This document shows, in pieces, positions 967-29,328 of a DNA stretch of 33,462 nucleotides. The notes beneath the pieces were generated by a model. That model was given only the letters and a program-made list of their open reading frames with translations, ran no database searches and was not told the DNA's origin. A program made the position numbers and the translations under genes. Every line of letters begins with the position of its first letter. Positions within the stretch are counted from its first letter, which is position 1. The stretch lies in IMG/VR virus record IMGVR_UViG_638341087_000016; one strand, given 5' to 3'. Source of the DNA: a virus (Duplodnaviria > Heunggongvirae > Uroviricota > Caudoviricetes).

Positions 967-1550
967 ATAGAACAAAATATCACCCAGAGGGCGGGGGTTT
1001 TTATACGTTCCCCTCCCCCTTAGCTAGAGATCCTTTTATCAAAACTTCGTGCATCATTTTGCAAAACCCAAATCAAAGCAAACTAGCCGCCAGCCCTCAC
1101 CGCACAAGGCTTCACGATATCCGCCCCCGAAAACCATCGGATACCACCTAATCATTTTGATCGTCACGGAAACCAAAACGATCCTTTTAAAAACATCATG
1201 TTATCCAGTCAGTTAGTAGCTGGCGGCGCGATGACTTTTGCAAAGTGCTGCAAATCTTTGCGCAGAGTGCAACGCCCGCAGGATGCAAAAGCCCAGCAGC
1301 GGCGCAGGCTGGCGGGGTGCTTTGCACAAAATTTCTTTTGCAAAATTTTTATGATCCAAACTGCGCAGGCGGGTGCGGTGTAGCGCCGTTTCCGTCCTGG
1401 ATCCGCTTCCGTTTGCCTGCTGTCGCTTACGCTGTGGGCCGCTGTTGAACGAACGAAAGAAAGGCCGCACGGTGGCGACCTTTAATCTTTGCGCCTGCTG
1501 TGGCGCGTTCTGTGGTGTCTGGTGAGGTGTGCGGTTATGCCGCTTTTTTG

Positions 1551-3275
1551 TCAGGCTATCAGGGGGCCGTATTTGCTTTTCAATGTGCCGGTTTTATTGG
1601 CCGTTGCGGTGAACTGCGCCGCCTGCCCACTGGCCCCCGTATTGGGGTGAGTATGTGATGCGGCAGTCTCTGCCAGCTCCCTCACCACGTCCAGGGTGTC
1701 GGTGAGCAGTGTCAGGACGTTAATCTCTTCGCTTCCCAGCTTTACCACCGGGGCAATCAGTTGTTGCGCCTGGGCCACACTTCGGCGAATGCCGCTGATT
1801 TTTTCAGTCAGTGCGCCGCTGACGTTTGACGTGACATCCCCTTTCACGTCGTCTGTAACATTGCCCGCGACATCCCGTTTCACGTTCCGGCCAACACTGA
1901 CGGAATTGTCCTTGCTGCAGGTTACTGTCAGGTTGCCGGATGTGCCGACGCTGTAATCCCCCTCGCTGATATGAACGACCGCCCCGGCCAGAAGTGTGGC
2001 CGTGCCAAGCACGGTTGTTTTATCTGTTGCCTGGACCGTAGTTTCACGGGCAACCACTTTGCGGATCTCTTCGTCGGTGGTGACTTCGCGAGTCATGGAG
2101 TTTTCGCGGATTGTCTGATCCGTCTGGCGTTCCCAGTCTCCGGCAACCGTCACGCGCTGCGATACACCATCGCGCTGTTGCTGCAACTGCTCACCGGGTT
2201 TAACCGCTGGCAGGTTATGACCCTCCGCCATAATCTGACGCACAAAGGGCTTATCCTGCCGCCCCTCAGTGAACCCAACTTCAACCAGCGTGCCAGGGGG
2301 CGGAAACTGAAACATTCCTGACTCGCTGCCCGCCATTGGCACAGGTAGTGGAACGGCAGAATAGATCGGCGTATTTGCGGCTGGCTTGCCGTCTTCGTCA
2401 AGCAGCTGGAGATCCACGGCATAGCGTGGGCGGAATGGATCGGCAATATCCCCCCCTGAAACATCCTCGCTTGGCGCTTCCACCCTAGCGAATCTTGGAA
2501 GATGCAGGCCGCTTGCCAGCTCCGGGAATGCGTTTTCAATCTGCCGCTGAATGGGTGATTTTTGCAATGGCTGGCCGTTGGCTTTGTTGCGGGGCTGCCA
2601 GGTAATTGCCATGTCATCGTTATTTAGCCGGACCTGGTTCAGCCGCTGGCCGTTTACCTCCGCACCCGGGCGCAGGCTCTGAATCATTGGCACAACCATT
2701 GAATTTCCGCCTGCCGATTCCTGGCTAAATTCGTGCGGGATCTCCACTGGTTTTCCCGCAAAAAGACTATGCTCCGCAGCGCCGACGAAGACATCCCCGT
2801 CCGGCAACTGATACCAAAGATAATCCGTCACTGAAAATGCACGGCCCAGACTGGCAAAAAGCTGATAGCCCGTGCCGCTGTGCGTAAAGTGGGGGATCGG
2901 TTTATCTGCATAAGCAGCGCCGACCGGCGTTGTGACGGTCAGCCCGCTTTGCTCACTTATCCAGTCAGTAATCTGGCGCAACGTTGGATGCTGGAAAGAA
3001 CACGGCCACAATTTATCAAAGATGCCGACCAGCTCACGCACGAACAACCGGCATGTTCCATTATCAGCAGGCTGTGACCGTTCGACGTACCCGGTAAACC
3101 AGCGCAGGACCAGACCATCATAACCAACATCGATACGCACCATTTTGCCGGTGTAATCTGTCTCTGTCCCTGCCGTAATAAACCCCCGACCGCACGCGTT
3201 CAGCTCCAGCACGATATTGCAGTCAATCAGATGGACCGGATCAGAGGAAAGGTACAGGCGTTTAATTGGTTTCAT
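1551..3275 (-). CDS. D: Late control gene D-like baseplate hub protein with a C-terminal spike-like extension
   Basis: 574 aa; N-terminal region has the gpD-type VGYDG...FTGYVE pattern; C-terminal region has short repeats and an SHTHPNTG motif resembling spike apex HxH motifs; ATG start and TGA stop verified. Confidence 0.65.
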   Translation of the reverse strand: MKPIKRLYLSSDPVHLIDCNIVLELNACGRGFITAGTETDYTGKMVRIDVGYDGLVLRWFTGYVERSQPADNGTCRLFVRELVGIFDKLWPCSFQHPTLRQITDWISEQSGLTVTTPVGAAYADKPIPHFTHSGTGYQLFASLGRAFSVTDYLWYQLPDGDVFVGAAEHSLFAGKPVEIPHEFSQESAGGNSMVVPMIQSLRPGAEVNGQRLNQVRLNNDDMAITWQPRNKANGQPLQKSPIQRQIENAFPELASGLHLPRFARVEAPSEDVSGGDIADPFRPRYAVDLQLLDEDGKPAANTPIYSAVPLPVPMAGSESGMFQFPPPGTLVEVGFTEGRQDKPFVRQIMAEGHNLPAVKPGEQLQQQRDGVSQRVTVAGDWERQTDQTIRENSMTREVTTDEEIRKVVARETTVQATDKTTVLGTATLLAGAVVHISEGDYSVGTSGNLTVTCSKDNSVSVGRNVKRDVAGNVTDDVKGDVTSNVSGALTEKISGIRRSVAQAQQLIAPVVKLGSEEINVLTLLTDTLDVVRELAETAASHTHPNTGASGQAAQFTATANKTGTLKSKYGPLIA

Positions 3276-3282
3276 CGTTTAA

Positions 3283-3825
3283 TTACCCCAGCGCATCGTT
3301 GACCGGCTTTAAGACCTTTTCTTCAAACCAGCTCATTTTGTCGGCTGGCTCATCAGCTCCGGCAGCCGGACCCGCGCCCTTTGCCCCTGTTTGCTTGGTG
3401 CTGGCCGTCGCGTTGCCTTTTCGGGCCTGTCGTTTTTCCGGGACGCTGCCTTTTTCACGCAGGGTGAAACTTACCTGCCAGGCAAGGCGATCCTCCTGCG
3501 GTACGGCATCAATCTGACCGGTAAACGTGGCTTCACGAAGGTTGATAGCCGTCGCCGTCGCATTGGCGACGCGGTACTTTTTCAGTGCGCCGCTGGCTTC
3601 GGTCGCGGATGCCAGCTGGAAAAGCCGCTGTAAGACGGCTTCGTCGTCGAATGTCACCAGACCCGATACGCGCAGCTCTTTGGCCTTGATACCCTGTTCA
3701 GCATTGGCCGTGCTCGATGTCTGGCCCGACTGGTCCTTTTCCTGAAACTGCATGGAAGGTGAAACCAGCATGTTCTGCATGGCGATCCCTTCACCATCAA
3801 GCGCGAGTAATGCGGTCTGGCTCAT
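3283..3825 (-). CDS. Hypothetical phage tail/baseplate-associated protein
   Basis: 180-aa ORF in the tail operon, GC-rich like the phage core, Ala/Gly/Thr-rich; overlaps the upstream gene by 29 nt unless an internal Met is used. Confidence 0.4.
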   Translation of the reverse strand: MSQTALLALDGEGIAMQNMLVSPSMQFQEKDQSGQTSSTANAEQGIKAKELRVSGLVTFDDEAVLQRLFQLASATEASGALKKYRVANATATAINLREATFTGQIDAVPQEDRLAWQVSFTLREKGSVPEKRQARKGNATASTKQTGAKGAGPAAGADEPADKMSWFEEKVLKPVNDALG

Positions 3826-4531
3826 GTAGCATCTTCCCTAAGTCAGATAACGAATCCCCGATAAACATCATCGCGGCGGTATGCACTGCCGTTGTTTGCG
3901 GGATGCCTTTCAGCAATTCTGCGGCAGCAACGGCATAACTCCCGCTGTAACTGAATGCAAAAATATTCGCACTGGCGGCTTTCAGGTCGTCCAGTCCCTG
4001 GCTGAGCGAGGACAGCAAACCGGCCCGTTCCTGAATAAATCCCGTCACCTGGTTTTTTAGATCTGTTGTGGTGGTACTGACTGCGGCGGCCAGCTGCGCG
4101 GCGGCAACACGCTGGGCATTCAGCGCCAGCCGGTTGGTTGAGACTGATAACGGCGCACTGGCTGGCAATACATCGGCTTTAACCGGCAACTGCATTTTTA
4201 CCGTGCTGAGTTCTGCGGCGGCTGCGGCCATACGGCTTACCTGCGTAAATACCGGGGCCGGAAATACGGTGGACAGTTTATTCAGTCCCTGCATAAAAGC
4301 ATCGTGGGTATTCTCCGCCACCATCATGACGATGACATCACCGCTACCGCTACCGCTACCGCCACCGGATAACAGCTTTTTAGCAAGGTATCCCAGCGCA
4401 TTGGCCGGACTGAGATAACCGCCTGAATCGGTGTTCTGTCCCAGACCGTAAACCCAGGGATGCGCTGGCACAATTGAACAGGCCAGCGCCCCCATATCAT
4501 CAGCAATCTTTATAACCGACTCACGCCACAT
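3797..4531 (-). CDS. Hypothetical phage protein with a Gly/Ser linker
   Basis: ORF in the tail operon; start moved to the ATG at 4529-4531, which has a GGAGG about 9 nt upstream; contains SGGGSGSGSGD. Confidence 0.4.
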   Translation of the reverse strand: MWRESVIKIADDMGALACSIVPAHPWVYGLGQNTDSGGYLSPANALGYLAKKLLSGGGSGSGSGDVIVMMVAENTHDAFMQGLNKLSTVFPAPVFTQVSRMAAAAAELSTVKMQLPVKADVLPASAPLSVSTNRLALNAQRVAAAQLAAAVSTTTTDLKNQVTGFIQERAGLLSSLSQGLDDLKAASANIFAFSYSGSYAVAAAELLKGIPQTTAVHTAAMMFIGDSLSDLGKMLHEPDRITRA

Positions 4532-5108
4532 CGCCCGGAACCTCCGGCCAGTCAATATCTGGCGCATCTTCTGGCTTAATACGATTAATCAAAACCCTGT
4601 ATTTTTTCCACGCCAGCAAAAGCGCTGTTTCCTCTTCCGTTGCAATATCCAGATCAACAGCATCCTGTAATGGGGCAATTTTTGATGCAGCCAGCGCCAG
4701 AAGACTGTCTTTTTGCTGTGTAGCCTGTGTAATCTGTGCCGTTTTTTCTGCGTCAGCATCATGCACCCATTTTTTACCATTCCATTTAACAAAATGGCCT
4801 TCCGGCGCAACGGAAACAACGTCGTCAGGTAACTGACCTAATTCATCAATCGTGATGGATTTCCCGGTGAGAATGTCGTAAACAATTTTCCCGCGATGGT
4901 CTTCAACAAGTGACCATTTTTCTGACGCAGAATTAAATACAGCGACAAAACCGGCTTTCATCGGCGGTGGCGCAATATTGGTACTGTTAGCAGGCAAACC
5001 GGTATTAGCAGGGATAAACCCATCACTTTTCCCGATAAATTCATTTGTATCAGCACGCAGGTTATAGATGGTAATTGTCCGGTTTTCTCCGGTCATTTCA
5101 AAAGTCAT
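4521..5108 (-). CDS. Tail fibre assembly protein (Tfa / gpG-like)
   Basis: 195 aa beginning [48 protein letters not shown], a typical Tfa N-terminus; directly downstream of the fibre gene. Confidence 0.8.
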   Translation of the reverse strand: MTFEMTGENRTITIYNLRADTNEFIGKSDGFIPANTGLPANSTNIAPPPMKAGFVAVFNSASEKWSLVEDHRGKIVYDILTGKSITIDELGQLPDDVVSVAPEGHFVKWNGKKWVHDADAEKTAQITQATQQKDSLLALAASKIAPLQDAVDLDIATEEETALLLAWKKYRVLINRIKPEDAPDIDWPEVPGDVA

Positions 5109-7083: not shown

Positions 7084-7683
7084 CTACTTCAAACTTGCGC
7101 TATATGTTGCTTCTGACTGGTTATTCACATCGCCCAGGGTGGCAGGCCAGCAAATATATTCCCCCTGATACCAGCCAATATTGATATTCAGTGGCAGGGT
7201 GTCGATTACTTCAAACTGGTAACGGCGGCATGTGCGCCCATATTTGCGAATGATTTCCAGCAGGAGATCGCCATTTTCCGCAACCTGGCTGCTTGTCACT
7301 CGAACGACAATCACGTCCCAGTCGAGTCCGTCCTGCCGTTCCAGTAATTCAACGTAACCAATCCCCAGTCGCTCAAAAATGGCAATAAAGCCCGCCACCT
7401 CTCCGGCCTGCTGCGCATTGATAAATGCGTAACTCACCCGCTTGCGGAAGATGTCGAGCGGCTCCCCCTTAAACCGATCGATGTCGCGCTCCCAGGCAAT
7501 CAGGTTCAACAGCGGCTCAGGGCAAACCAGCGGGTCAAACTGCTTTAACGGCCAGGTGATCCACCCGTACACCTGCGACCAGAACTTCACGCTGCCACGC
7601 AACAGCCTGGCGGGGTCGCCTTTGTTCAGCCACGACGGCAATTTCAGACCGGAAAGCAACTTCGAAAACTCAGTCATTTTCAA
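7084..7683 (-). CDS. Tail protein I-like (Mu gp48 / DUF2313-type)
   Basis: 199-aa ORF between the baseplate J-like gene and the fibre gene, the conserved position of this family. Confidence 0.6.
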
Positions 7684-8854
7684 TCTCCACCGTTAACCCT
7701 GACAGGCGCGGGACCGACAGTTCGCTGACAATATCCGTTAGTGAAAAATGCAGTGAATCGACAACCGGAAAAGCCTTGTGGATCTCGCGGCCCAGATTCG
7801 AAAAGGAATAGCGCGAATAGGGCTGCGTCTTTTTAACGTCGTAATTGGCGTTCTCGCGAAACGCGCAACGAATCAGGTCGGTAATACCGGTTTTTAACGC
7901 GCTCAGGTCTTCCGCTTCCATGTTTTCCACGCTTTTGACATAGACAGTAACCGCCAGGGTGTGACTGGTTTCCGGCATGGCATAACACTGCAGATCATCA
8001 CCGTGTCCGTGGTGGCCCTGGGTATTCACATAATCGTTAACCGCATCAATAAAGGGCTGTGATATTTCGCCGCTGTCCAGTAACAGATAAGCATTTGCCG
8101 TACCCGGCCCACGCGGGGCATCGTGCAAAAAGTAGATGCGATCAATGCTCAGGCCCAGCACGCTGGCAATCATGCTGCGGTAGATAGCGTCAGAGTGGTA
8201 ATTCCCCACCAGATTAAACTGGTTGCGGGTGCGGTCGCGCAGCTCGTCGTCGCTTTCCTCGTTAGCCCCTGGCGTAATCAGCCATTCGTCCTCATTGACC
8301 GCGCTGGCGATTCCAGCTACTGCAACAGGTAAGATCCGGTAATAGCCTGGCGCAAGGTTATAGCCGCTGCCGGTGCCGGTCGCCGTGACGGGAACCAGCC
8401 CGCTTTCAACCCCGGCAGGCAGTGTCACGTCTTCATTCACGGCCAGCACGTAAACCACGCCGTTAATGCGCTCTGTTTGCACCAGTGTTCCGGCAGGCAC
8501 GACGACCACATCCGCCGCATTCAGCTTGAAGAATCGCAGCACGCCAGCGGCAGCACTGGCCGGTTTAGGCTCGATATGAACCGCCCAGGCCAGCAGGCGC
8601 AGCATGGGACCGGTGGCAGTCGCAACAAACATATTGCGCAGAACCACATCGATCAGCGCCGCACGCAGCCATAACACCGGCGTGGTGACAATCTTCGAAA
8701 TCAGCCGCCAGAAAGGTGACATTCTCGACGTGTTTGTGACGAACCCTTCCGCCTGCACGGTGGCTTTAAATGCCGCCGTAATTTCGGCCTCTGTCGCGGG
8801 CATCCCGCTGTCATTCAGTACCTTTTCGAAATCAACGTCGGGTTTCTCAGTCAT
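7670..8854 (-). CDS. Baseplate J-like protein
   Basis: 394-aa ORF with a baseplate J-like sequence character; overlaps neighbours on both sides. Confidence 0.75.
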   Translation of the reverse strand: MTEKPDVDFEKVLNDSGMPATEAEITAAFKATVQAEGFVTNTSRMSPFWRLISKIVTTPVLWLRAALIDVVLRNMFVATATGPMLRLLAWAVHIEPKPASAAAGVLRFFKLNAADVVVVPAGTLVQTERINGVVYVLAVNEDVTLPAGVESGLVPVTATGTGSGYNLAPGYYRILPVAVAGIASAVNEDEWLITPGANEESDDELRDRTRNQFNLVGNYHSDAIYRSMIASVLGLSIDRIYFLHDAPRGPGTANAYLLLDSGEISQPFIDAVNDYVNTQGHHGHGDDLQCYAMPETSHTLAVTVYVKSVENMEAEDLSALKTGITDLIRCAFRENANYDVKKTQPYSRYSFSNLGREIHKAFPVVDSLHFSLTDIVSELSVPRLSGLTVEIEND

Positions 8855-19216: not shown

Positions 19217-21028
19217 ATGGCTAAATATTCCGATGAATTAAAAGAAGCGGCCCGCACGCTTTATATGAAAAGCTGGACGCCGAAAGATATTGCGCAGGAA
19301 CTGAATATTCCACCGCGTACAATTTACCACTGGGCTGATGTCGGGAAGTGGGCATCACTGCTGCCTGTTGAATCGGTGGAAAATGTCATCGCCCGCCGTA
19401 TCGACCAGCTCTCCCGCCGCGAGAAAAAAACAGCGCTGGAACTGGAAGAACTGCGCGATCTGATTGCTCACCATGTGAAACTCATGGCGCAGCGCAACAA
19501 ACACGCCGAAAAGCTGGCAGAAATTCAGGCCCAGAAAGCGGCTTATGATGGTGAAGGGTACTGCCTCAGCAGCGCAGGCGGGGAACCAGAGGAAAGAAAG
19601 CGCCGGTATAAGAAAAACGACGTTTCCGGTATTACACCGGAAATGCTCGACACCTGGGCGCGGGAACATCTCTTCGAGTACCAGCTGCACTGCCGCGAAC
19701 ATAAAGGCGAAGACTGGCGCTTCATTCTGAAAAGCCGACAGGTCGGCATGACCTATTATTTCGCCTGGGAGGCATTCGAAGATGCTGTCATTACCGGTGA
19801 TAACCAGGTCTTTTTCTCTGCAAGCCGCTCCCAGTCTGAAATCTTCCGTGAATACATCGTCCAGATCGCCCAGAACCATTTCGGCGTGACGCTGACGGGT
19901 AAAAATATCCGCCTCAGCAACGGCGCAATACTGCGCTTTTTGTCCACGAACGCCAGCACCGCGCAGGGCTTTAACGGCCACCTGTATGGCGATGAGGTTT
20001 TCTGGATCCCGAAATTCACGCGCCTGCACGAAGTTGCCAGCGCAATGGCAACGCATAACAAATACCGGACGACCTACTTTTCGACGCCCAGCGCGAAAAC
20101 GCACCAGGCTTACCCGGTATGGACTGGCGAAGCCTGGCGCGGGGACGACCCGAAACGCAAAGGTGTGGCGTTCCCGACAGAAAGCGAAATGCGCCAGGGT
20201 ATTCTCTGCCCGGACCAGATCTGGCGCTACATCATAACGATGGAAGACGCTATCGAAGGTGGCCTCGGTGCGCTTGTCGATATTGAACGGCTGCGCAACA
20301 AATACAGCCCGACCGCGTTCGCCATGCTCTACATGTGCCAGTTTGTTGACAGTAAGGACGCGGTGTTCAAGTTCTCCGCGCTTGTCGGCTGCGAAGTGGA
20401 CCGGGCCACATGGGGCGACTTTGATCTGACCGCTGCGCGGCCCTTCGGCAATCGCGAAGTATGGGCAGGCTTTGACCCGTCACGATCCGGCGACAACTCC
20501 ACCTTTGTGTTAATCGCGCCCCCCATAGAGGACGGCGAGCGCTTCCGCGTGCTGGCCGTCTGGCAATGGCAGGGCTTTAACTTCAGCTGGCAGGCCGACC
20601 AGATAAAGCAGCTTATGCGCCGCTTTAACATCACTTACATCGGGATCGATACAACCGGCATTGGTAAGGGCGTTTATGACCTGGTCAGCAAGTTTGCACC
20701 GCGCGAAGCCACACCCATTCTTTACAGCGTCGAAAGCAAAAACCGTCTGGTAATGAAGATGATCGACGTTGTCGAGCGTAAGCGCATCGAATGGGCAAAA
20801 GACGCCGTAGACGAAACGAACAAAGAGCGCGTCGAAATTCCGGCCAGCTTTATGGCTATCCGGCGCACGACAACCAACAGCGGCAACGCGCTGACGTTTG
20901 TTGCCGAACGTTCAGACGCGACCGGCCATGCAGATGTTTTCTTCGCTATCTCGCACGCCGTAATTAACGAACCTATCGATCACGAATATGACCGCCCATC
21001 GGGCTGGTACTTTGGGAAAGCAGCATGA
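19217..21028 (+). CDS. P: Terminase large (ATPase) subunit P
   Basis: 603 aa, P2 gpP-like; stop overlaps the Q start in ATGA. Confidence 0.85.
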   Translation: MAKYSDELKEAARTLYMKSWTPKDIAQELNIPPRTIYHWADVGKWASLLPVESVENVIARRIDQLSRREKKTALELEELRDLIAHHVKLMAQRNKHAEKLAEIQAQKAAYDGEGYCLSSAGGEPEERKRRYKKNDVSGITPEMLDTWAREHLFEYQLHCREHKGEDWRFILKSRQVGMTYYFAWEAFEDAVITGDNQVFFSASRSQSEIFREYIVQIAQNHFGVTLTGKNIRLSNGAILRFLSTNASTAQGFNGHLYGDEVFWIPKFTRLHEVASAMATHNKYRTTYFSTPSAKTHQAYPVWTGEAWRGDDPKRKGVAFPTESEMRQGILCPDQIWRYIITMEDAIEGGLGALVDIERLRNKYSPTAFAMLYMCQFVDSKDAVFKFSALVGCEVDRATWGDFDLTAARPFGNREVWAGFDPSRSGDNSTFVLIAPPIEDGERFRVLAVWQWQGFNFSWQADQIKQLMRRFNITYIGIDTTGIGKGVYDLVSKFAPREATPILYSVESKNRLVMKMIDVVERKRIEWAKDAVDETNKERVEIPASFMAIRRTTTNSGNALTFVAERSDATGHADVFFAISHAVINEPIDHEYDRPSGWYFGKAA

Positions 21029-22086
21029 CAAAGAAACAGCGTAATAATAAAAAATTCAGGTCCATGACCGGCAGCAAGGTTGAATCCTTCACGCCAGGGC
21101 GCGGAAGCGTGATCACATTTGGCGAACCCGAACCCATCCTGACGACCGGCACTGATTATCACAATATCTGGTATGACAATGAGTATGACCACTGGCGACT
21201 CCCGATTGATCGCCTGGCGCTGGCCCAGTTGCCGAACCTTAACGGCCAGCACGGTGGGGTACTGTATGCGCGGCGCAATATGGTTGCCGGTGGCTACATC
21301 GGCGGCGGCCTGACGCCTGACCAGGTCGAACAGGCTGTCTTTGATTACCTGCTGTTTGGTGACGTCGCTATCCTGAAAATTCGTAACGTATTCGGGGAAG
21401 TGATCGACCTGCTGCCGCTGCCGTCGCTGTATCTGCGCTGCCGAAAAGACGGGGCGTTTGCTGTTTTGCAGGAAGGGCCAGCACTTATCTATGAACCGGA
21501 AGACATCGTCTTTTTTAAAATGTACGACCCGCGCCAGCAGGTGTACGGCCTGCCTGACTATATCGGCGGCATCCATTCGGTGTTACTCAACAGTGAGGCA
21601 ACCATCTTCCGACGCCGTTACTACAATAATGGGGCACATATGGGCTTTATTCTCTATACCAGCGATCCGAATCTTACGCTGGAAATGGAAAATGAAATCA
21701 AAGAGAAGATCGCCCAGTCCAAAGGGCTGGGTAACTTCCGAAATATGTTTATCAACATCCCGAAGGGCGACCCGGAAGGGGTTAAAATCATGCCAGTGGG
21801 TGAAGTCAGCGCAAAGGATGAATTTGCCAACATCAAAGGGATAACCGCGCAGGATATCTTTACCGCCCACCGTTTCCCCGCTGGCCTGGCGGGTATCATC
21901 CCGACCAACGGCGCGGTAATGGGCAACCCTGAAACCGCCCGCACAACCTATCGCAAGGATGAAGTTATCCCCTTGCAGCGCAAGCTAATGAACGGCGTCA
22001 ATAATGACCCGGAGATCCCCGCACACTTGCACCTGGTTTTTGACGTGGATATCCCGGCAATTGCCACCGAAAAGGGCGAAAAATGA
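21025..22086 (+). CDS. Q: Portal protein Q
   Basis: 353 aa, P2 gpQ-like, downstream of P with an ATGA overlap. Confidence 0.85.
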   Translation: MTKKQRNNKKFRSMTGSKVESFTPGRGSVITFGEPEPILTTGTDYHNIWYDNEYDHWRLPIDRLALAQLPNLNGQHGGVLYARRNMVAGGYIGGGLTPDQVEQAVFDYLLFGDVAILKIRNVFGEVIDLLPLPSLYLRCRKDGAFAVLQEGPALIYEPEDIVFFKMYDPRQQVYGLPDYIGGIHSVLLNSEATIFRRRYYNNGAHMGFILYTSDPNLTLEMENEIKEKIAQSKGLGNFRNMFINIPKGDPEGVKIMPVGEVSAKDEFANIKGITAQDIFTAHRFPAGLAGIIPTNGAVMGNPETARTTYRKDEVIPLQRKLMNGVNNDPEIPAHLHLVFDVDIPAIATEKGEK

Positions 22087-22409
22087 GCGCAGTTAAGTTA
22101 AAATCCCCCCCATTATTAGCAATGGCGTGCGGGATGGTGAACATGCGAGTTTTTAAAATTAAATGTCCTGAATGCGGCTCACCGGCCATCATTCGCAAAT
22201 CTGACTGGAAAGATAAAAAACTGGCGTCTTTATACTGTGGCTGCACAGAAGTGGAATGTGGTCATACATTTGTTTATAGCGTTGAGTTTTCACATACCCT
22301 CAGCCCCAGCGGGCTGACCGGCAACAAGCTGGTTAAATTCCTGATTGACCGGCTCAAGCCGGAAGAACGTCAATTCGCGCTGGACCTGCTCAGTGGGCAA
22401 ACTACATAA
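22083..22409 (+). CDS. ogr: Ogr/Delta-family zinc-finger late transcription activator (candidate)
   Basis: KCPECG...YCGCTEVECGHTF Cys motif resembling P2 Ogr; start overlaps the Q stop in ATGA; the short form would start at ATG 22143. Confidence 0.6.
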   Translation: MSAVKLKSPPLLAMACGMVNMRVFKIKCPECGSPAIIRKSDWKDKKLASLYCGCTEVECGHTFVYSVEFSHTLSPSGLTGNKLVKFLIDRLKPEERQFALDLLSGQTT

Positions 22410-22480
22410 ATCCCACTGCTACACATAGATGTACGGCGCAAGCATCAATCCTTTGAACACCTAATGTACATTACATCCCT

Positions 22481-22509
22481 CCGCCGCACATTCAAATTGC
22501 GGCGGTTTT
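22481..22509 (+). terminator. Rho-independent terminator after the P-Q-ogr operon
   Basis: 8-bp GC stem ccgccgca/tgcggcgg with a 9-nt loop followed by TTTT. Confidence 0.6.
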
Positions 22510-22671
22510 CAAATAAGTAAAGGATTGCCCTATCCAGCCCATTGCCTACACATTATAAAATCATACTTTTACGCACTATCAATATCCTATATAAACAACA
22601 TAGAAACAATCCTTAGTGAATAAACGCGTTCAAACACTGTAAGAATAAATCTCTACAATGATACATTACAT

Positions 22672-25464
22672 TTAATCTGAAAGTTCACCAATATCATCCA
22701 TTGGTTTTTTATCATTAAAAGATAGACGAAGTTTTTGTTCATGTAATGCAGTGATTTTTTTACAACTATCTACAGAAATATAATAAAACGACAAGCCATC
22801 GTTATTAATAAATTCCAAATTAATCCTAATAGACATCAGCGCGTACATCAATGGATTTTCATCCTTGAAATTATACAACCCCTTAACTAAGGAAATATTC
22901 TCATCAGAAATACTTTCAATTTTCAAATCAAATAAATTAGTATTCCGCAGACAGGAAAATACGCTCAAAAAATCCATGTAGTAAAGACCAGGAGACCCCA
23001 AACCCAAAACTCCTTTTGAATCTGTTATTCTCATACCTTTTGAGTAACGGTAAACACTTGCCTCTCCTTTAACCATGTAATGAATTGTTATAAGCTTATC
23101 GGAAGGTAGTTCACTTACATCTTCGATCTCATTTACATCTTTATATTGGCCTTTAATTCCATCAAGCATTTTATGAAGCCAAGCATAGACAAACACTTCA
23201 GCATGATGTGAACTATTCATTGAATAATGCACTTTATCAATTGACTGCAAGACTTCTCTCTTATTAATCAATGAATAGAATGGATTGCAGACAACTGAAT
23301 TTGACACAGGAATAGAATCAATATCTACGAATTTATTAAAATACCCACCTAATGATATTGATACTTTATCTATGTATTTATTAACCAGAACCTTATCAAG
23401 GTCAGAAGAAACAATAGAATTTGCGATTAATTCATTTTTTACAGAAATTATACTTTCAAGATGCTCTGCAACCTCCATCCGATTTGTTTCTTGAGAAGAT
23501 CCTTCATTAATCAACTCTAATAAAGCTGAAAATTCATCACCTTTCAAATATGATATAAGTGATTGCAGTTCATGAGTTGTTATTTTTGTATTTTTAATAA
23601 ACTCTTTTTTATTACGTATAAAAATAGGATTGAGGTTGTTTTTATTAAATAATGTTTGAGTCATTAAAAGGGATACTGCTTTGAAAGCATCGTTATTTAT
23701 TGAAAAGGTTGCAACCTCATAATCAGGTATATCTCTTAAAGTTCTACTTGCATCAAAATCAGGTTCAGATGGGACTGTAAATATAACATCATACACGCCA
23801 CTCTTATAAAAAAGATCTTCTAGGAATGAAGGTGCTAACCATTTCATTAAATTCTGTTTTATTATTCTCAATTCCTCCTGATGCCCATCACTTTTTTCAG
23901 ATAAATAGCACAGCCTAATAATCAGTAAAGTTATAACCTGTCTTACACACGATACCATCTTGTTCTCAATGATACTAAGGGTTTCGCCATCATCAGATGA
24001 CTCTGGATAACGAAATTTCTCAGTCAAGAATCGAGTATTCAGGCTAAATGCCAAATAATTCTTTGACAAGATGTTGTCTCTCACCGTTGACATATATAAA
24101 TCAAAAAAACGATATTCTGGATCACCTAAACTATATTGAGCACGATGTTCCAATGACGGTGATATCAATTTATAAAATTCATCATATTGCTCATTATCAT
24201 AAATATACCTTCCCAAATCCATAATCGATCGAAGAGCATCACACACTATATTATAGTTTTTATACCCACTCACTTCAGAACTAACCTTCATATAAAAAGC
24301 AGCAAAAATTGAATACTCTATATTATTTTTTTTGTTAGTATAACCAAAAGAGTGATTGAGGTTATGTATTACTTTAACTAATTCAGTTTCACTAACTAAT
24401 GTGAAGATAGCTCTTATGCTAAAATCTAACGCTAACTCATTACCACTAAAAAGACTATTTCTTAAGCTAATAACTACTGCATCTTCATACTTACCGTAAT
24501 TCAAGAAGCTTTCAGGAGCTGAACTGAACACCAATCCTTTTTTCAATAGTTTTGTAACATTACTAATTAATAGCTCATCGATCGACGCTCCATCTTGCAC
24601 TTCAATATGAACCGATGAGGTTGATAGTGGATATATAAAGTTAAGATTCACGCGTAAATCAGTACGTACCACTTTCGAAAAACGCTCTAGCTCATTGTTA
24701 ATTTCTTTAAAGCAAATTGGACAAAAATCATTAATAATGACATTTTGATTATTTTGGAAAATATTTAACTTACGTTGTTCTTTATTGATAAAATCGGAAT
24801 CCCACCCATAATGAATATATTCAAAATCATTAATCATGTTTAAAAATTTATTTTCTATAGTTCTTCTACGTTCGTCAATCAATAAATAATCATTTTTAGC
24901 CTTATCAAGCTCAAAAAATAAACGATCAGTTATTATAGTTGGATTCTCAGTAACATTATATAATTTCAGATACATTGAACCATAATTAAAAATAAAGTAT
25001 AACGATACAAAAATGGATATAGCATAAGTAATCATGCCGCCACCACATGAAAGCAATACGATACCACTTAAAAGACTAAAAATAGAATTTAAACTAAACT
25101 TTAAAAAACTAGTTTTCCGCAACAACATCGACTTACAAATATTTTCAAAGCCATGTTCAGAATAATTAGAAACCTGACTAACAAACATTCCCATAAATGT
25201 AATTGATAGTGCAGCAATAGTTCCATGTATGCCTAAAACTCCCGCCCAAACACTAGTAGTCCAATTCAATGGGGAATTATTGAGAAAAGATGGTGTTACA
25301 AGTAAATACTTTACCCCTTCATCAACATATCTAGAGTAGATTACACCGGAAATACCCAACCCGACCAGAATAAAGTAGATCAAGAAGATAATTATAACTT
25401 CCCTATTTATACTTAAAAAACCATTATTAAAAATAATTTTTCTTTCCAAAATCAGACCCCACAT
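22672..25464 (-). CDS. Large membrane-anchored protein of unknown function; candidate single-gene anti-phage cargo
   Basis: 930-aa ORF with ATG start; about four N-terminal hydrophobic helices in residues 20-160 and a roughly 770-aa soluble region; very AT-rich coding sequence; no Walker A or other motif recognised by eye. Confidence 0.8.
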   Translation of the reverse strand: MWGLILERKIIFNNGFLSINREVIIIFLIYFILVGLGISGVIYSRYVDEGVKYLLVTPSFLNNSPLNWTTSVWAGVLGIHGTIAALSITFMGMFVSQVSNYSEHGFENICKSMLLRKTSFLKFSLNSIFSLLSGIVLLSCGGGMITYAISIFVSLYFIFNYGSMYLKLYNVTENPTIITDRLFFELDKAKNDYLLIDERRRTIENKFLNMINDFEYIHYGWDSDFINKEQRKLNIFQNNQNVIINDFCPICFKEINNELERFSKVVRTDLRVNLNFIYPLSTSSVHIEVQDGASIDELLISNVTKLLKKGLVFSSAPESFLNYGKYEDAVVISLRNSLFSGNELALDFSIRAIFTLVSETELVKVIHNLNHSFGYTNKKNNIEYSIFAAFYMKVSSEVSGYKNYNIVCDALRSIMDLGRYIYDNEQYDEFYKLISPSLEHRAQYSLGDPEYRFFDLYMSTVRDNILSKNYLAFSLNTRFLTEKFRYPESSDDGETLSIIENKMVSCVRQVITLLIIRLCYLSEKSDGHQEELRIIKQNLMKWLAPSFLEDLFYKSGVYDVIFTVPSEPDFDASRTLRDIPDYEVATFSINNDAFKAVSLLMTQTLFNKNNLNPIFIRNKKEFIKNTKITTHELQSLISYLKGDEFSALLELINEGSSQETNRMEVAEHLESIISVKNELIANSIVSSDLDKVLVNKYIDKVSISLGGYFNKFVDIDSIPVSNSVVCNPFYSLINKREVLQSIDKVHYSMNSSHHAEVFVYAWLHKMLDGIKGQYKDVNEIEDVSELPSDKLITIHYMVKGEASVYRYSKGMRITDSKGVLGLGSPGLYYMDFLSVFSCLRNTNLFDLKIESISDENISLVKGLYNFKDENPLMYALMSIRINLEFINNDGLSFYYISVDSCKKITALHEQKLRLSFNDKKPMDDIGELSD

Positions 25465-25756
25465 TTAATAAGACAACATGATTTATTAATTATCTAAAAA
25501 TCTCTGCAATGATATTGTATTACATAAATCTTCAAATAACATTAATCATTCTATCTTGAAACTTGTCTTAAACAAGATTACCTCTTTACTCTGCTGAGTC
25601 AAACAGCCTAGCCCACTCACTTGTATCACTCATCTTTAACATCGCAGCGTAGTTTCTAACTGGAGCATACCGAATATGACCGCTATTAACATTATGCCGT
25701 AACTGCATATTTAGATATTGGATTAGGGGCATCGCGCTGACAGAACTCAAATGCGG

Positions 25757-25778
25757 GCTCTTTGCCGCCCGCCCCCGC
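25757..25778. other. cos-like GC-rich element (candidate cohesive-end site)
   Basis: Minus strand reads GCGGGGGCGGGCGGCAAAGAGC, similar in composition and orientation to the P2 cos end as I recall it (GGCGAGGCGGGGAAAGCAC). Confidence 0.3.
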
Positions 25779-25828
25779 AGAATCACGCTATCCGACGCAA
25801 CCAGCTGCGACGGATAGCGTGATTTAAT

Positions 25829-28441
25829 TCATTCTTTAGGGTAGCGACCTTCCGCACCCGCCAGCATTTTTTGATATTCCCAGACCGGATCAAACCGCAG
25901 GTGCGTGGCATCAATGCCGTGGTTATCCCGTAAATGTTCCCATAATTTATTCACCGTCCGTGACTCATTAGGTAATTGACGCGTTATCAACTGGCCGCCA
26001 GCACTGGCTTGATAAAATTTCCCGCCAATCTCCAGACGGCTCCCCATTAACAGCGAAACGGCCTGAATCTCTGAAATCTCAACCAAACACAACGCCGCAT
26101 CAGCCAGCAGACTGGCAACCGCAGGGGCAAGCGCTGCCCGCCTGGCTTTATCAGCCACCGATCTGGCCTCGGTTTTTTCCACGGCAGAACGCCAGGCAAC
26201 ATCTAATTCGCTCCCTGGTTCATAAGGTGATCCGCTGTGCCGCCTTTTGAATGGTGCTTCACGTAGTCGCCGTATCAATTTGCGCCGCGTTGGCTGGTCC
26301 ATATTTTCAAAATCGACGATTTCCTCTTCTGATTCTTCTGTAATACCCTCCACACCAGGCGAAAAATCGGTGATTTTTTCGTCTTCCGTAGAGTTATTGA
26401 CAGAACTCCAAGCGTCGCCGGTTGGCGACGGCAAAAGGTCAACCCCCAAACCGGGGCCGCTTTTGGCCCCAGTGACGGTTTTGGATTTGGCTCGAATTTT
26501 CCACTTAACCAGACGGGTGCAAATACGGGAGGCATCCCCCAGACGCGGCGACCAGACCCCGAAAACCTTTTCGGGGATCTCACAATAAGCATTCATTTCA
26601 TCAGCGGGCTGATAGGCCAGACGGACGACATAGTTTTCTCGCGGGATCAAAACACCACCCTGGCGGATGATGTAAGTAGCAAAGCATCCGACATCGGCAG
26701 CGGCGCAAACCGCATCCATTGCAGGATCCACAAGCAATGGCGCACCACGTTTGAAGGTACTGTCAATTTTCTGTCGGGTCGTGATCTGATTACTAAGTTT
26801 GCGCAGCTCGCGGTAAACCGATATGGGCGGCTGTCCGATGGGCTGAAACTGGCGGATACGGTGAAGCGATGCCCAGGCCATTGCATATTTGGCGCTTTCA
26901 TTCAGCGGCTTGCCGCTTTCGTCGTCCAGTTCACCGGCCAGCGCGTGGCCGTCGATATTCTTCGAAATGTATTTAGCGATGTATGCCGTTGCTGACCCTT
27001 TCCGTGGGTCCATTTTTTTTGACTTGAAACGAGCGCCGGTATTGCGGCCCAGCTCGTCGCGGTCTTCCGCAATGAAGTAGGTGCGAAGGATCGCAACCGT
27101 GGCTTTGACTTGCTCTTGTGGCATAAACAGCAACGCGTGCCAGTGTGGTGTCCCATCGTGATGCGGCTCGGCGACACGGAAGCCATAAGGGCGCAAATCT
27201 TCGCGTTTCAGTTTGGCGGTTGCCCGGTTCCACACACGGCATAAATAGCACTGCGCCTGGGCGACGGTGGAATGATTCCATTTGGCGTTATGGTGGCCGG
27301 ATGCAATATTACTGTGATATTTCGACGGGCAAGTGATTGTCAGGAAGATGCCAACATCGCCGCGACTTTGGGCAACAAGCTCAACCCCAGCCATTCGGGC
27401 CATAAGCTCATGGCGACGAATAGCCGGGTTTGACGTGGATTTATTAATCATGTCCTCAAGTGAGGAAACGTTGCCGTCTTCGTCTACCAGTTCATGACTT
27501 TTGAAAAAATCCCGGTTTTTACGGCGCTGTTCCTGCCACTCGATCAGGCTGGAAGCGCTAACGTATGCGTGCGCTTTTTTATTTACCGCGCCAACGGCTC
27601 GCAGCTGGTTTTCGCGCCAGTCACAACGCAGGCGCCAGATTTTGCGCCCCCACCAGTCAGGCGAAGCCATACGCAAAATGGCCGTACATATCCGATCACG
27701 TTCCCACGGCGCATACCATGCAGGCGGCACAATGCGAAGCGCCAGCATTTCGCGGCCCAGATGACAATAAAGCCAGTCCAGTTCTTCGACGTTCATGTCG
27801 GAAACATTCTGTCCCAGGGCTTCGCATTCCGTCCCCAGCATTTCAGCCATGCGGCTGGCGATCTCATTAGCGGCGCTTAGTGCTTCCCGCTTTGTGAAAT
27901 CAGCCAGCCGTTGCCAGCGCCCGAACCAGTACGCGGCCAGTTCGCCGGTGATATCAGGCGAAACACCTTGCCTTGTGCGCACAACATCAAGACGCAGCAA
28001 TGATTTTTTCACTGTCCCCATAAGAAAATCATTGGTGTGTCTGGTTTCACGGTTGACCCGTAACCACTCAATTTTTTTACGCCAGACTTCACGAATGAAG
28101 AACGGCTCTGATAATAAACGTGCTTCGACACCTTCTGGCGTATTGGCCCAGGCTGCCGCCGTGGCTTTAGCGGCTTCCATTTCTTGCCGGATTATATTTT
28201 GATGGGCGGCCAGTGGCAGGCCGCATGGTTCGTACCTGTCCAGCGCCTGGATGAGCGCATCACGGTCACGAACTTCGGCGGGATTGTAACCGGCACGTTT
28301 GAAGATGTGATCGATATGTTTTTTTACGGCAGGATGATGCGCCACCGCCCCAGCAAGCGGGGCGATTTTTTTCGGTTCATAGATGTACGGGCCAACAGCT
28401 GGACGCGGTGCGTTCCAAGGCCATGCGAAAGCGTTAGTCAT
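25829..28441 (-). CDS. A: Replication initiation protein A (rolling-circle nickase)
   Basis: 870 aa containing ATAYIAKYISKNIDG, the active-site tyrosine motif of P2 gpA-type initiators. Confidence 0.85.
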   Translation of the reverse strand: MTNAFAWPWNAPRPAVGPYIYEPKKIAPLAGAVAHHPAVKKHIDHIFKRAGYNPAEVRDRDALIQALDRYEPCGLPLAAHQNIIRQEMEAAKATAAAWANTPEGVEARLLSEPFFIREVWRKKIEWLRVNRETRHTNDFLMGTVKKSLLRLDVVRTRQGVSPDITGELAAYWFGRWQRLADFTKREALSAANEIASRMAEMLGTECEALGQNVSDMNVEELDWLYCHLGREMLALRIVPPAWYAPWERDRICTAILRMASPDWWGRKIWRLRCDWRENQLRAVGAVNKKAHAYVSASSLIEWQEQRRKNRDFFKSHELVDEDGNVSSLEDMINKSTSNPAIRRHELMARMAGVELVAQSRGDVGIFLTITCPSKYHSNIASGHHNAKWNHSTVAQAQCYLCRVWNRATAKLKREDLRPYGFRVAEPHHDGTPHWHALLFMPQEQVKATVAILRTYFIAEDRDELGRNTGARFKSKKMDPRKGSATAYIAKYISKNIDGHALAGELDDESGKPLNESAKYAMAWASLHRIRQFQPIGQPPISVYRELRKLSNQITTRQKIDSTFKRGAPLLVDPAMDAVCAAADVGCFATYIIRQGGVLIPRENYVVRLAYQPADEMNAYCEIPEKVFGVWSPRLGDASRICTRLVKWKIRAKSKTVTGAKSGPGLGVDLLPSPTGDAWSSVNNSTEDEKITDFSPGVEGITEESEEEIVDFENMDQPTRRKLIRRLREAPFKRRHSGSPYEPGSELDVAWRSAVEKTEARSVADKARRAALAPAVASLLADAALCLVEISEIQAVSLLMGSRLEIGGKFYQASAGGQLITRQLPNESRTVNKLWEHLRDNHGIDATHLRFDPVWEYQKMLAGAEGRYPKE

Positions 28442-29328
28442 TCACATATGCCCGTAGAAGTCGCAACCTTGAGAATACCGATCACCTCACTGGCGGCCCC
28501 TCGGGTAATGGCGTTCGCGCTGACAGAACGGTTAACGCTAATTTCCTGGAAGTTGAAAGAGCGATAAATCTCGCAGGTGGCTGGGGTGTCGCTATTGGAC
28601 AGGATCACCGGCGAACCAGTAAGGCGGTTAATATCCAGCAGAGCGGCAGCTAACTGGCGATGCTCTTTAATCCCAAACGGGGCGGTGTGGTATTGGGTGA
28701 AATTAGCGGTTTCGCTTGTTGGCAGGTATGGCGGATCGCAATAGATAACCGCGTCACTACCAATCATGATTTTTAACGTGCTCTGGAAATCGCAGCACAC
28801 GAAAATAGCTTTCGTGTCGTTAGCTTTTTCAGAGAATAAACGGATTTGTTCTTCCGGGAAGTAAGGCGGGGTTTTGTGACGCCCAAAGGGAACGTTATAT
28901 CCACCCTGTTGGTTGTAGCGTACTACGCCGTTATATCCGTGACGGTTCAGGTAAAGAAATTGTGCTGCACGAAGAATCTTGCCCGCGTCCGGCCCATCTT
29001 CAAACACACTGCGCAATGACAGTAGGTCACGGGCGCGGGCGTTGAAATCATCGCGGATCCACTTATAGCCGTCTTTATCGCCGTACACTTTAAACAGTGG
29101 GCGAGCAGCGTCGATCACCGCATCAGGCCAGCGGGTTATCTGGCGATACAGGTTAATTAAATCTGGGTTGATATCACCCAGGATATAACGGCGATATTCA
29201 GTATTGAGGAAAACAGAAGCACCGCCGACAAACGGTTCCACCAGGCAATCGGCTTTCGGCAGAATCGGCAGCAAATCAGGCATAACGCGGCCTTTACCAC
29301 CGGGCCATTTAACGAGAGATCGAATCAT
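28438..29328 (-). CDS. dam: DNA adenine methyltransferase (Dam-like)
   Basis: 296 aa with KWPGGK near the N-terminus and a DPPY catalytic motif; stop overlaps the A start in ATGA. Confidence 0.85.
   Translation of the reverse strand: MIRSLVKWPGGKGRVMPDLLPILPKADCLVEPFVGGASVFLNTEYRRYILGDINPDLINLYRQITRWPDAVIDAARPLFKVYGDKDGYKWIRDDFNARARDLLSLRSVFEDGPDAGKILRAAQFLYLNRHGYNGVVRYNQQGGYNVPFGRHKTPPYFPEEQIRLFSEKANDTKAIFVCCDFQSTLKIMIGSDAVIYCDPPYLPTSETANFTQYHTAPFGIKEHRQLAAALLDINRLTGSPVILSNSDTPATCEIYRSFNFQEISVNRSVSANAITRGAASEVIGILKVATSTGICE

Follow-up and report, generated by a model that had tools for sequence, protein, structure and literature searches.

A single-gene membrane-protein cargo in the gpA–portal slot of P2-family prophages and its putative role in phage defence

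Introduction

In phage P2, the interval from gene A to the cos/portal end carries old and tin, lysogen-expressed accessory genes that exclude other phages (PMC9122126, citing Christie and Calendar 2016). The gpA–portal slot is an experimentally validated defence hotspot (PMC9122126), and new immune systems have demonstrably come from the hotspots of P2-type prophages. Non-defence cargo is also held there, including partition systems (~25% of P2-like phages) and cytolethal distending toxin (~2%) (PMC9122126). In a follow-up preprint, protection was obtained from 6 of 8 randomly picked hotspot loci of unknown function in the sister P4 elements.

Here we ask what occupies this slot in one P2-type prophage of E. 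coli, and what the occupant may do for the lysogen. The window is the whole stretch of 33,462 nucleotides that was analysed (IMG/VR record IMGVR_UViG_638341087_000016). An earlier note, made from its letters without database searches, had placed one AT-rich gene at the P2 tin/old-equivalent position and suggested that its membrane-anchored product acts in abortive infection or exclusion. The gene, hereafter the cargo, is among the commoner unexplained occupants of the hotspot.

Results

The locus and its boundaries

Open reading frame analysis of the window shows that a single frame of 930 codons fills the gpA–ogr interval on its own (Table 1). The RefSeq entry uses a TTG start at 25449, five codons inward, giving a protein of 925 aa (WP_000439988.1). 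GC content is 0.28-0.32 over 22501-25500 compared with 0.48-0.59 in the neighbouring phage genes; the cargo frame itself has a GC content of 0.31 and its flanks one of about 0.53. On a finer scale, the AT-rich core extends from about 22510 to 25590. Thus the reading frames, GC profile and flanks bear out the description of one AT-rich gene at the tin/old-equivalent position, and Pfam matches confirm gene A on one side and the ogr/portal genes on the other. Also encoded by this prophage is AbiH.

Table 1. Features of the cargo locus and its flanks, with positions in the window.
Feature	Position	Strand	Basis or remarks
Portal gene	21025..22086	+	flank of the Ogr/Delta-like gene
Ogr/Delta-like zinc-finger gene	22083..22409	+	PF04606, 3.5e-16; overlaps portal stop codon
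Intrinsic-terminator-like hairpin CCGCCGCA...TGCGGCGG + TTTT	22481..22509	+	read from sequence; GC step
Cargo ORF	22672..25464	-	930 aa, single-gene module; identical to P0001, cluster of 1192 sequences
C-terminal alpha/beta domain (residues 713-916)	22717..23328	-	invariant K735-R736-E737, G810, G826, Y828, N870
All-helical, alpha-solenoid-like domain (318-712), acidic	23329..24513	-	invariant E327, R517, E531, W542
Long stalk helix (176-211) and small alpha/beta domain (212-317)	24514..24939	-	AF2 and conservation
Four-helix TM domain (14-173)	24946..25425	-	hydropathy, AF2, K/R density
TM2 (68-99)	25168..25263	-	most conserved element of the cargo protein
AT-rich region 5' of cargo (20-24% GC)	25465..25600	-	presumed site of its own promoter
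Relic of a second gpA 3' end, 39 codons	25601..25717	-	56% identical to C-terminus of L007 gpA; tblastn E 8e-13
G+C-rich hairpin GCGGGCGGCAAAGAGCCCGC	25753..25772	-	between gpA and cargo
Hairpin, 14-bp stem	25781..25824	-	directly 3' of gpA stop; read from sequence
Replication endonuclease gpA, 870 aa	25829..28441	-	PF05840 Phage_GPA, E 3e-107

The 120 nt preceding the cargo ATG are only 20-24% GC. A promoter/terminator scan called no strong sigma-70 consensus in this upstream region; promoter-like sites were fewer than in shuffled controls and the scan gave no information. Downstream of the resident gpA stop, and just upstream of the cargo, lies the 3' relic of a second gpA. This relic forms a conserved block in the alignment of cargo upstream regions and is, as judged from sequence comparison, a scar of recombination that is carried along with the cargo. 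A conserved small partner ORF in the upstream region was considered and rejected, as the apparent ORF is the gpA relic.

Two hairpins separate gpA from the cargo. The one that abuts the gpA stop codon probably insulates the cargo from transcription of the early operon. The other is either terminator-like or the element by gene A that had been called cos-like in the earlier note; a G+C-rich hairpin is indeed present there, but no match to the P2 or 186 cos within 5 mismatches was found in the window. A P2-type cos-like motif occurs 140-250 nt downstream of the cargo in four other loci (L003, L007, L010 and L002). At the far end of the interval, the terminator-like hairpin follows the ogr-like gene and coincides with the other edge of the AT-rich island.

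Protein architecture and topology

The cargo protein consists of four N-terminal TM helices followed by a soluble part of about 760 aa. Helices in the AF2 model span residues 14-46, 68-99, 120-139 and 144-173; hydropathy agrees on four TM segments, and the number had been anticipated correctly. The model has a pLDDT of 85.4 over its full length and of 88.3 over the C-terminal domain. Based on K/R density across 49 homologs, the predicted topology is N-in, with loop 43-71 periplasmic, loop 95-119 cytoplasmic, a 5-residue GGG turn outside and the C-terminus in. Periplasmic exposure is therefore limited to about 29 residues and the 5-residue turn. The mean net charge of the cytoplasmic part is -23, and this acidity suits a protein ligand better than a nucleic acid one.

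Conservation is concentrated in the membrane. TM2 (LGIHGTIAALSITFMGMFV) is invariant on all helix faces, even in members that are only 25% identical overall; the invariant stretch covers positions 77-95 and includes a mid-membrane His80 together with Thr/Ser residues. TM3 and TM4 carry ladders of Ser, Tyr and Gly. Mean conservation is 0.87 for TM2 and 0.69 for TM3-4, compared with 0.42-0.57 in the soluble domains, of which the stalk and the small alpha/beta domain are the most variable (mean column conservation 0.42-0.45). The first periplasmic loop is also well conserved (P58, S59, W68, W73). The integral membrane domain is thus the conserved core of the cargo protein. A conserved TM domain joined to variable soluble domains matches what an effector held constant beside a diversifying sensor would look like. 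An intramembrane enzyme, a transporter or a docking site could explain the invariant TM helix just as well.

Searches for related sequences, motifs and folds

We did not identify a PADLOC family for the cargo protein even at E <= 10 (PADLOC-DB v2.0.0), and no NCBIfam family matches it. Pfam returned only noise, with no family recurring among the 49 members; the most distant members, retrieved in an exhaustive search, likewise have no true Pfam match, and an Ig-repeat match in one member (P0090) is spurious. A profile search of PDB sequences gave nothing below E = 1. The model has no significant PDB fold match and none to known defence proteins. Walker A/B, PD-(D/E)xK and GIY-YIG motifs and conserved HEPN/HNH motifs were not found, in line with the motif-free soluble region described from sequence inspection; nor were a signal peptide, secretion features or enzymatic features. 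The profile and structure searches that had been proposed as a check returned no significant match to a known family or fold.

The claim that the protein belongs to no recognisable family stands for the curated libraries (Pfam, NCBIfam, PADLOC) only: two PHROG families, with no function assigned, match it almost end to end, and the protein has an entry in a published hotspot catalogue.

By structure comparison, the modelled C-terminal domain resembles the HK97 capsid/encapsulin fold, weakly but consistently, a likeness that stands without support at the sequence level. An hhalign comparison of this domain with P2-family capsid proteins gave a probability of 0.7%, and capsid/encapsulin Pfam families are absent from all 49 members at E <= 1. 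Aligning the two alpha/beta domains of the cargo protein with each other by hhalign gave no signal.

Family range and prior cataloguing

The family comprises 46 matches among 1.84 billion representatives, almost all from Enterobacterales, and public data hold 1192 near-identical sequences of the cargo protein. The gene is at about 31% GC in every host. Carriers include several STEC strains (O103/O45/O111) as well as isolates from the environment, food and animals and members of at least nine non-pathogenic genera. Searches of 50,697 phage records (megablast and tblastn) and of 72,556 plasmids (tblastn) returned no match. The family is known from prophages and prophage remnants only.

The cargo protein itself is entered as P2 hotspot system #27 in Table S5B of Rousset et al. 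2022 (Cell Host Microbe; PMC9122126), an identity established by matching peptide strings in that table. System #27 is listed as a single gene with no Pfam domain, 131 occurrences in the P2-like hotspot and the annotation '3 TM'; system #169 is a 5'-truncated copy of it together with an Ogr-like gene (PMC9122126). It appears in neither the validated set (Table S2A) nor the tested-negative set (Table S2B) of that study. Neither the peptide nor the accession is in the DefensePredictor supplements, and the accession was not found in any searchable paper. The locus is therefore less novel than the earlier note assumed. New beyond the catalogue are the structure and topology, the pattern of conservation, the range of the family, the gpA relic, the copy in a lambdoid prophage and the persistence of the gene in decayed prophages.

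Genomic contexts and mobility

Comparison of the interval across related prophages, another of the proposed checks, placed the cargo between gpA and the portal gene, or in a deletion derivative of this arrangement, in 17 of 21 distinct loci; the gpA/cargo/portal order of the window recurs in 16 further loci. The backbones are clearly different members of the P2 family, with gpA proteins 44-100% identical and differing portal types. The remaining loci are two decayed prophages in which only the cargo is intact, one lambdoid prophage and one solitary copy. In the lambdoid prophage the cargo is flanked by replication gene P and RusA/Q and runs antisense to the lytic operon. Longer, stop-riddled relics of gpA accompany the intact cargo in L002 and L011. 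Such relics beside a lone intact cargo point to recombinational exchange and to selection on the cargo after prophage decay.

Toxin-antitoxin modules share the slot with the cargo in some loci. We found no conserved partner gene beside the cargo in the loci compared, and no tRNA integration sites adjoining solitary copies.

Among complete E. coli genomes, all copies (19 of 19) reside in one prophage lineage at >= 99.8% identity. Flank searches for a slot swap among near-identical E. coli prophages returned the same 19 genomes, all with the cargo. Because the cargo is fixed in this lineage, a swap is not visible among close relatives. Exchange at the slot, which had been expected from P2-like prophages generally, is seen in the differing P2-family backbones, the extra toxin-antitoxin cargo and the gpA relic, but not between close E. 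coli relatives. Taken together, these sequence comparisons strongly support a view of the interval as an accessory (moron) module that a P2-family prophage carries as a self-contained unit and that is exchanged horizontally.

Discussion

A proposed fusion of sensor and membrane effector

The cargo may quite plausibly be a self-contained anti-phage gene whose product uses a cytoplasmic sensor to gate an effector in the membrane, and this is the reading we tentatively favour. The defence function, the division into sensor and effector and a membrane-permeabilising output are inferred; a homology or fold tie between the protein and defence was not found. As enzymatic motifs and domains are lacking, the membrane domain is the only candidate for the effector. 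From the stalk to the capsid-fold-like C-terminal domain, with the small alpha/beta domain and the alpha-solenoid between them, the variable cytoplasmic part would serve as a receptor, and its ligand would be a protein made or delivered by the invading phage. Ligand binding, or oligomerisation upon binding, would open or rearrange the invariant TM2-TM4 bundle, lined by His80 and the Ser/Thr/Tyr ladders. Membrane potential would then be lost, and the infection would abort.

Comparison with known systems shows shared logic and clear differences. The cargo occupies the slot of old and tin, but P2 Old is a soluble ATPase-Toprim nuclease, whereas the cargo protein has no Walker A/B motif and no Pfam ATPase or Toprim match. 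Tin is small and soluble, unlike the cargo protein with its 930 aa and integral membrane domain, which is related to neither Old nor Tin in sequence or domains. The only part that could plausibly serve as effector is a TM module of several helices, as in lambda RexB, AbiZ, the TM effectors of CBASS/Pycsar, the TM partners of retrons and DRTs and the 4-TM KwaA of Kiwa. Like these membrane-acting Abi effectors, the cargo is encoded by a prophage or found within a defence hotspot, and its TM module is conserved while the rest varies. Those effectors use separate sensor or signal-generating proteins, however, whereas the putative sensor and effector of the cargo are fused in one chain, and homology to them was not detected. 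SNIPE, a membrane-bound nuclease that cuts phage DNA as it is injected and whose defence is organised at the inner membrane, likewise comes from a single gene and is an elongated protein, constitutively anchored in the membrane, most of which lies in the cytoplasm (bioRxiv 10.1101/2025.11.03.685801). Its architecture combines one N-terminal TM helix with DUF4041 and a GIY-YIG nuclease; both domains are absent from the cargo protein, which has four TM helices and an acidic surface.

A more specific version concerns the C-terminal domain, which may, in what we regard as a long shot, be a true, highly diverged HK97-type capsid fold captured as an immune receptor. It would sense capsid proteins of the invader by co-assembly, or would, upon triggering, self-assemble in capsomer-like fashion (5-/6-mers); either assembly would gather the invariant four-helix bundles into a membrane pore. 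If true, a capsid-mimic sensor wired to a membrane effector in one polypeptide would be a defence principle not yet described.

Alternative explanations

Exclusion proteins encoded by prophages are classically membrane proteins, and the cargo protein could act by direct, non-abortive exclusion at entry. Located in the inner membrane at or close to the path by which the phage genome is injected, it would block DNA translocation by contacting tape-measure or ejection proteins or the host channel that these use, with recognition by the conserved periplasmic loop and TM bundle, and the cell would survive. In logic this would be like superinfection-exclusion proteins or SNIPE, minus the nuclease. 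The predicted integral membrane character, the well-conserved first periplasmic loop and the lack of a toxic or enzymatic domain are consistent with such a role, and SNIPE, acting at injection, offers a precedent for a single-gene, membrane-anchored, elongated protein (bioRxiv 10.1101/2025.11.03.685801). A cytoplasmic part with three or four sub-domains is nevertheless far beyond what a plug needs, it is acidic and has no nuclease, and little of the protein is exposed to the periplasm. The most variable parts are cytoplasmic, which argues for a cytoplasmic ligand and against exclusion at entry. We consider exclusion at entry unlikely.

The hotspot's partition systems and cytolethal distending toxin raise another explanation, that the cargo is an accessory gene with no part in defence, serving lysogen fitness or virulence, envelope modification, maintenance or addiction, or interference with P4-type satellites. 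The STEC carriers and the missing defence homology fit this, and the capsid-remodelling proteins of satellites are what a capsid-fold-like domain might in principle interact with. Arguing the other way, the gene is also found in the environmental, food and animal isolates and non-pathogenic genera, the protein has no signal peptide, secretion or enzymatic features, its large domain is predicted to be cytoplasmic, and the genes that co-reside with the cargo are conflict systems. Addiction in particular is at odds with the lack of a two-gene toxin-antitoxin structure. On balance a non-defence role is improbable, to about the same degree as exclusion at entry. Much less credible still is a structural or morphogenetic phage protein related to capsids, as the HK97-like C-terminal fold might suggest; this reading is very improbable and close to refuted.

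Significance

The cargo has been adopted by two unrelated temperate-phage families and stays intact as the prophage around it decays. Although the structure of its product is predicted with confidence, no solved structure or known domain matches that model, and being a single gene, the cargo lends itself to cloning. Should it prove to be a defence gene, it would represent a new family in which a sensor is fused to a membrane effector, and the invariant TM helix with its mid-membrane histidine would provide a mechanistic handle; the possible capsid-fold domain would then be a new way to sense phages. If it is not, the cargo would still encode a membrane protein of enterobacterial prophages, those of STEC lineages among them, that is under selection and calls for an explanation.

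Genomic setting and distribution

A complete P2-family prophage makes up the window; its insertion point in E. coli is between yegQ and yegR. The interval 22410-25828 contains exactly one long ORF, the cargo gene, with a replication endonuclease gene (gpA) on one side and an Ogr/Delta zinc-finger gene and the portal gene on the other, the flanks that the earlier note had claimed. GC content over 22501-25500 is 0.28-0.32, compared with 0.48-0.59 in adjoining phage genes, so the description of a single AT-rich gene of lower GC than its surroundings holds. The AT-rich core extends from ~22510 to 25590 (80-nt resolution), and the 120 nt preceding the cargo ATG have 20-24% GC. The RefSeq entry (WP_000439988.1, "hypothetical protein") starts at a TTG five codons downstream. 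One of 19 E. coli genomes (NZ_CP157170.1) has a cargo match with 1 extra nt, annotated there as two CDSs; this copy is therefore probably frameshifted.

Features of the window and related loci (L numbers), and predicted domains of the cargo protein
Feature	Location	Strand	Details
AbiH-family gene	1-966	+	321 aa, GC 0.37; PF14253, E 2.4e-60
HP1-like tail/baseplate module	1551-4567		also in L001
Large terminase	19217-21028	+
Portal gene	21025-22086	+
Ogr/Delta zinc-finger gene	22083-22409	+	overlaps portal stop codon
Cargo gene	22672-25464	-	930 aa
gpA 3' relic	25601-25717	-	39 codons, 56% identical to L007 gpA end, E 8e-13
G+C-rich hairpin GCGGGCGGCAAAGAGCCCGC	25753-25772	-	after gpA stop
Hairpin	25781-25824	-	14-bp stem, after gpA stop
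Phage_GPA replication endonuclease	25829-28441	-	E 3e-107
DNA adenine methylase gene	28438-29328	-	overlaps gpA start
Pseudogenised gpA 3' end	L002, about 7370-7840		157 codons kept; stops and frameshifts
Pseudogenised gpA 3' end	L011, about 1003-2020		~345 codons kept; stops and frameshifts
Extra slot cargo, between gpA and cargo gene	L016, 3534-4373; L025, 3366-4135; L013, 3381-4150
Lambdoid-prophage cargo gene	L014, 5001-7796
IS3 element	L001, 28576-29789		between cox and fil
TM helices	residues 14-46, 68-99, 120-139, 144-173		AlphaFold2 model
Long stalk helix	residues 176-211		C-terminal to TM bundle; AlphaFold2 model
Small alpha/beta domain	residues ~212-317		AlphaFold2 model
Large all-helical domain	residues 318-712		AlphaFold2 model
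C-terminal alpha/beta domain	residues 713-916		AlphaFold2 model

We obtained 21 distinct loci encoding the cargo family. In 17 of these (the window, L003, L006, L007, L010, L013 and L016-L026) the cargo gene lies immediately downstream of an intact gpA in the same orientation. Next comes the portal gene, except in two deletion derivatives that have GPD/ogr there. These loci span very different backbones: their gpA shares 44-100% identity with the probes, and several portal types occur. Two further loci, both from Citrobacter (L002 and L011), are decayed P2 prophages, and in Morganella a lone cargo gene adjoins icd. The remaining locus (L014) is in a lambdoid prophage of Cronobacter turicensis, where a member at 36% identity lies antisense to the lytic operon, between a lambda-P-like replication gene P and RusA/antiterminator Q. 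Two unrelated temperate-phage families use the same cargo. Its GC content is 28.5-32.4% at every locus, regardless of host. No conserved partner gene was found across the loci. In some loci (L016, L025 and L013) the slot also houses toxin-antitoxin pairs, in which ParE is paired with an HTH protein and TumE with a MarR/HVO_A0114-like one.

Exchange and prophage decay

A conserved block ~100-250 nt upstream of the cargo gene is common to the window, L002, L008 and L011. When translated, it proved to be the gpA C-terminus. In the window this relic sits downstream of the stop codon of the intact resident gpA. The relics thus indicate that recombination, breaking at the end of gene A, carries the cargo from one P2-family genome to another. 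They likewise indicate that "solitary" chromosomal copies are leftovers of decayed P2-type prophages in which the cargo alone stayed intact; in L002 a P2-type cos-like motif is still present after it. That a 2.8-kb AT-rich ORF stays intact where its neighbours have become pseudogenes speaks for selection on the host.

Other features of the prophages

Also encoded, between yegQ and the baseplate genes and inside the prophage, is an AbiH-family abortive-infection protein, the product of the first ORF; the opposite end of the element therefore holds a second defence gene, this one recognisable. The Ogr/Delta-type late activator gene faces the hotspot; in P2 itself, ogr is at the opposite genome end, near att. 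The tail/baseplate module is HP1-like rather than P2-like (HP1_ORF34 baseplate protein, E 1e-53; DUF2586, DUF2590, baseplate J), and those for head, replication and lysogeny are of P2 type, making the backbone a mosaic. This may be the reason that the P2 cos was not found in the window. One of two hairpins following gpA, GCGGGCGGCAAAGAGCCCGC, loosely resembles the G-rich cos cores GCGCGCAGGTGACGGGGGG[A/C]AAGCCC, which canonical P2-like loci have downstream of the cargo. If this hairpin is cos, this lineage would differ from P2 in having the cargo on the portal side of cos. Most related loci likewise have the DNA adenine methylase gene (MethyltransfD12) upstream of gpA; it may serve this phage group in anti-restriction. 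An IS3 element breaks the early region of strain RM13322 (NZ_CP050498.1) and is missing from the window.

Protein architecture and conservation

Four TM segments were identified by hydropathy and again in an AlphaFold2 model built on the 49-sequence family alignment (mean pLDDT 85.4, pTM 0.67, a confident model), in agreement with the earlier count of about four N-terminal helices. Motif searches found no Walker A/B, PD-(D/E)xK, GIY-YIG or conserved HEPN/HNH, so the soluble region is, as first described, free of Walker A and nuclease motifs. Family-wide Lys/Arg density falls from 3.5 in the N-terminus (19 residues) to 1.6 in loop 1 (29 residues), rises to 3.1 in loop 2 (25 residues) and is 0 in the GGG turn. 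Under the positive-inside rule, these values predict an N-in/C-in topology with the bulk of the protein cytoplasmic. This part is acidic throughout the family (mean net charge -23).

The membrane domain rather than the soluble region forms the conserved core: column conservation averages 0.87 in TM2, 0.69 in TM3-4, 0.42-0.57 in the soluble domains and 0.37 in TM1. Positions 77-95 of TM2 (LGIHGTIAALSITFMGMFV) vary little or not at all on any helix face, even in a member with an overall identity of only 25%, and include a mid-membrane His80 as well as Thr82, Ser87 and Thr89. Invariant in TM3/4 are S124, G134, G141, G143, Y147, S150, S154, Y161 and Y169. Scattered invariant polar residues occur in the soluble part (E327, R517, E531, W542, K735-R736-E737, N870). 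An anchor helix would not show such constraint, which is in keeping with a membrane module that has a function, for example as a channel, a pore or a tightly packed oligomer interface.

Homology searches and prior knowledge

The cargo protein family is an orphan in sequence and essentially so in fold. The cargo protein had no match in Pfam, NCBIfam or PADLOC, and a PDB sequence profile search returned nothing; no Pfam family recurs among the 49 members scanned singly. The claim of no recognisable family thus stands for these libraries and requires amendment for PHROGs, the only matching library, where two function-unknown families are essentially the cargo protein itself. When 1.84 billion representative proteins were searched exhaustively with a profile, just 46 matched at E <= 1e-3. 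Those named are from Escherichia, Citrobacter, Klebsiella, Enterobacter, Serratia, Morganella, Cedecea, Cronobacter, Rahnella, Yersinia, Edwardsiella and Kluyvera, with one marginal match in Candidatus Thiodiazotropha. No known domain was found in the distant members.

Rousset et al. (2022; PMC9122126) defined the gpA-portal slot as an anti-phage hotspot, and Table S5B of that study includes the cargo protein under the number #27, with 131 occurrences, no Pfam and the note "3 TM". System #169 combines a truncated form with an Ogr gene similar to that of the window. The protein is in neither the validated nor the tested-negative tables of that study, nor in the DefensePredictor supplements, and its accession was found in no searchable paper. 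Thus, the locus is already catalogued yet uncharacterised in the literature. In a 2026 preprint, six of eight randomly chosen unknown-function P4 hotspot loci were phage-protective, and machine learning classed 15-32% of unknown P2 hotspot proteins as antiviral; the protection assays cover P4 loci and no P2 unknowns.

Possible functions

The analysis establishes where the cargo lies, that it moves and is retained, how the protein is built and predicted to be oriented, and how unevenly it is conserved; we infer its defence function and mechanism. On the best-supported reading, at somewhat under even odds, the cargo is a portable accessory module of one gene that most likely acts against phages, with a proposed fusion of sensor and effector in one chain and an abortive outcome. 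The variable, acidic cytoplasmic domains would bind a phage protein, and this binding would gate or assemble the invariant TM bundle, which would then dissipate the membrane potential and abort the infection. Direct exclusion at the DNA-entry step, in a SNIPE-like manner that involves no nuclease, we consider unlikely; an accessory role other than defence appears equally doubtful.

A structural, capsid-related role is highly improbable. Foldseek comparison of the model with the PDB gave nothing at E <= 1e-3, and exportin/importin solenoids headed its list, which also had a few entries for encapsulins or capsids. In a profile-profile comparison, the probability for P2-family capsid proteins was 0.7%. 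The HK97 resemblance is thus weak and fold-level only, a lead rather than a finding, and no confident match to a structural protein, the outcome named beforehand as counting against the earlier proposal, was found. A structural role is contradicted by the complete head module that the prophage already has, by the composition and TM helices of the cargo, by the early-region position of the lambdoid copy and by the absence of the family from sequenced phages (not found in 50,697 phage records, or in 72,556 plasmids).

The cargo belongs with the hotspot-borne single-gene prophage defence candidates and would in itself not surprise a specialist. It is a well-defined and cheap-to-test candidate, and its unusual features are an invariant TM helix, a possible capsid-fold domain and survival beyond the prophage.
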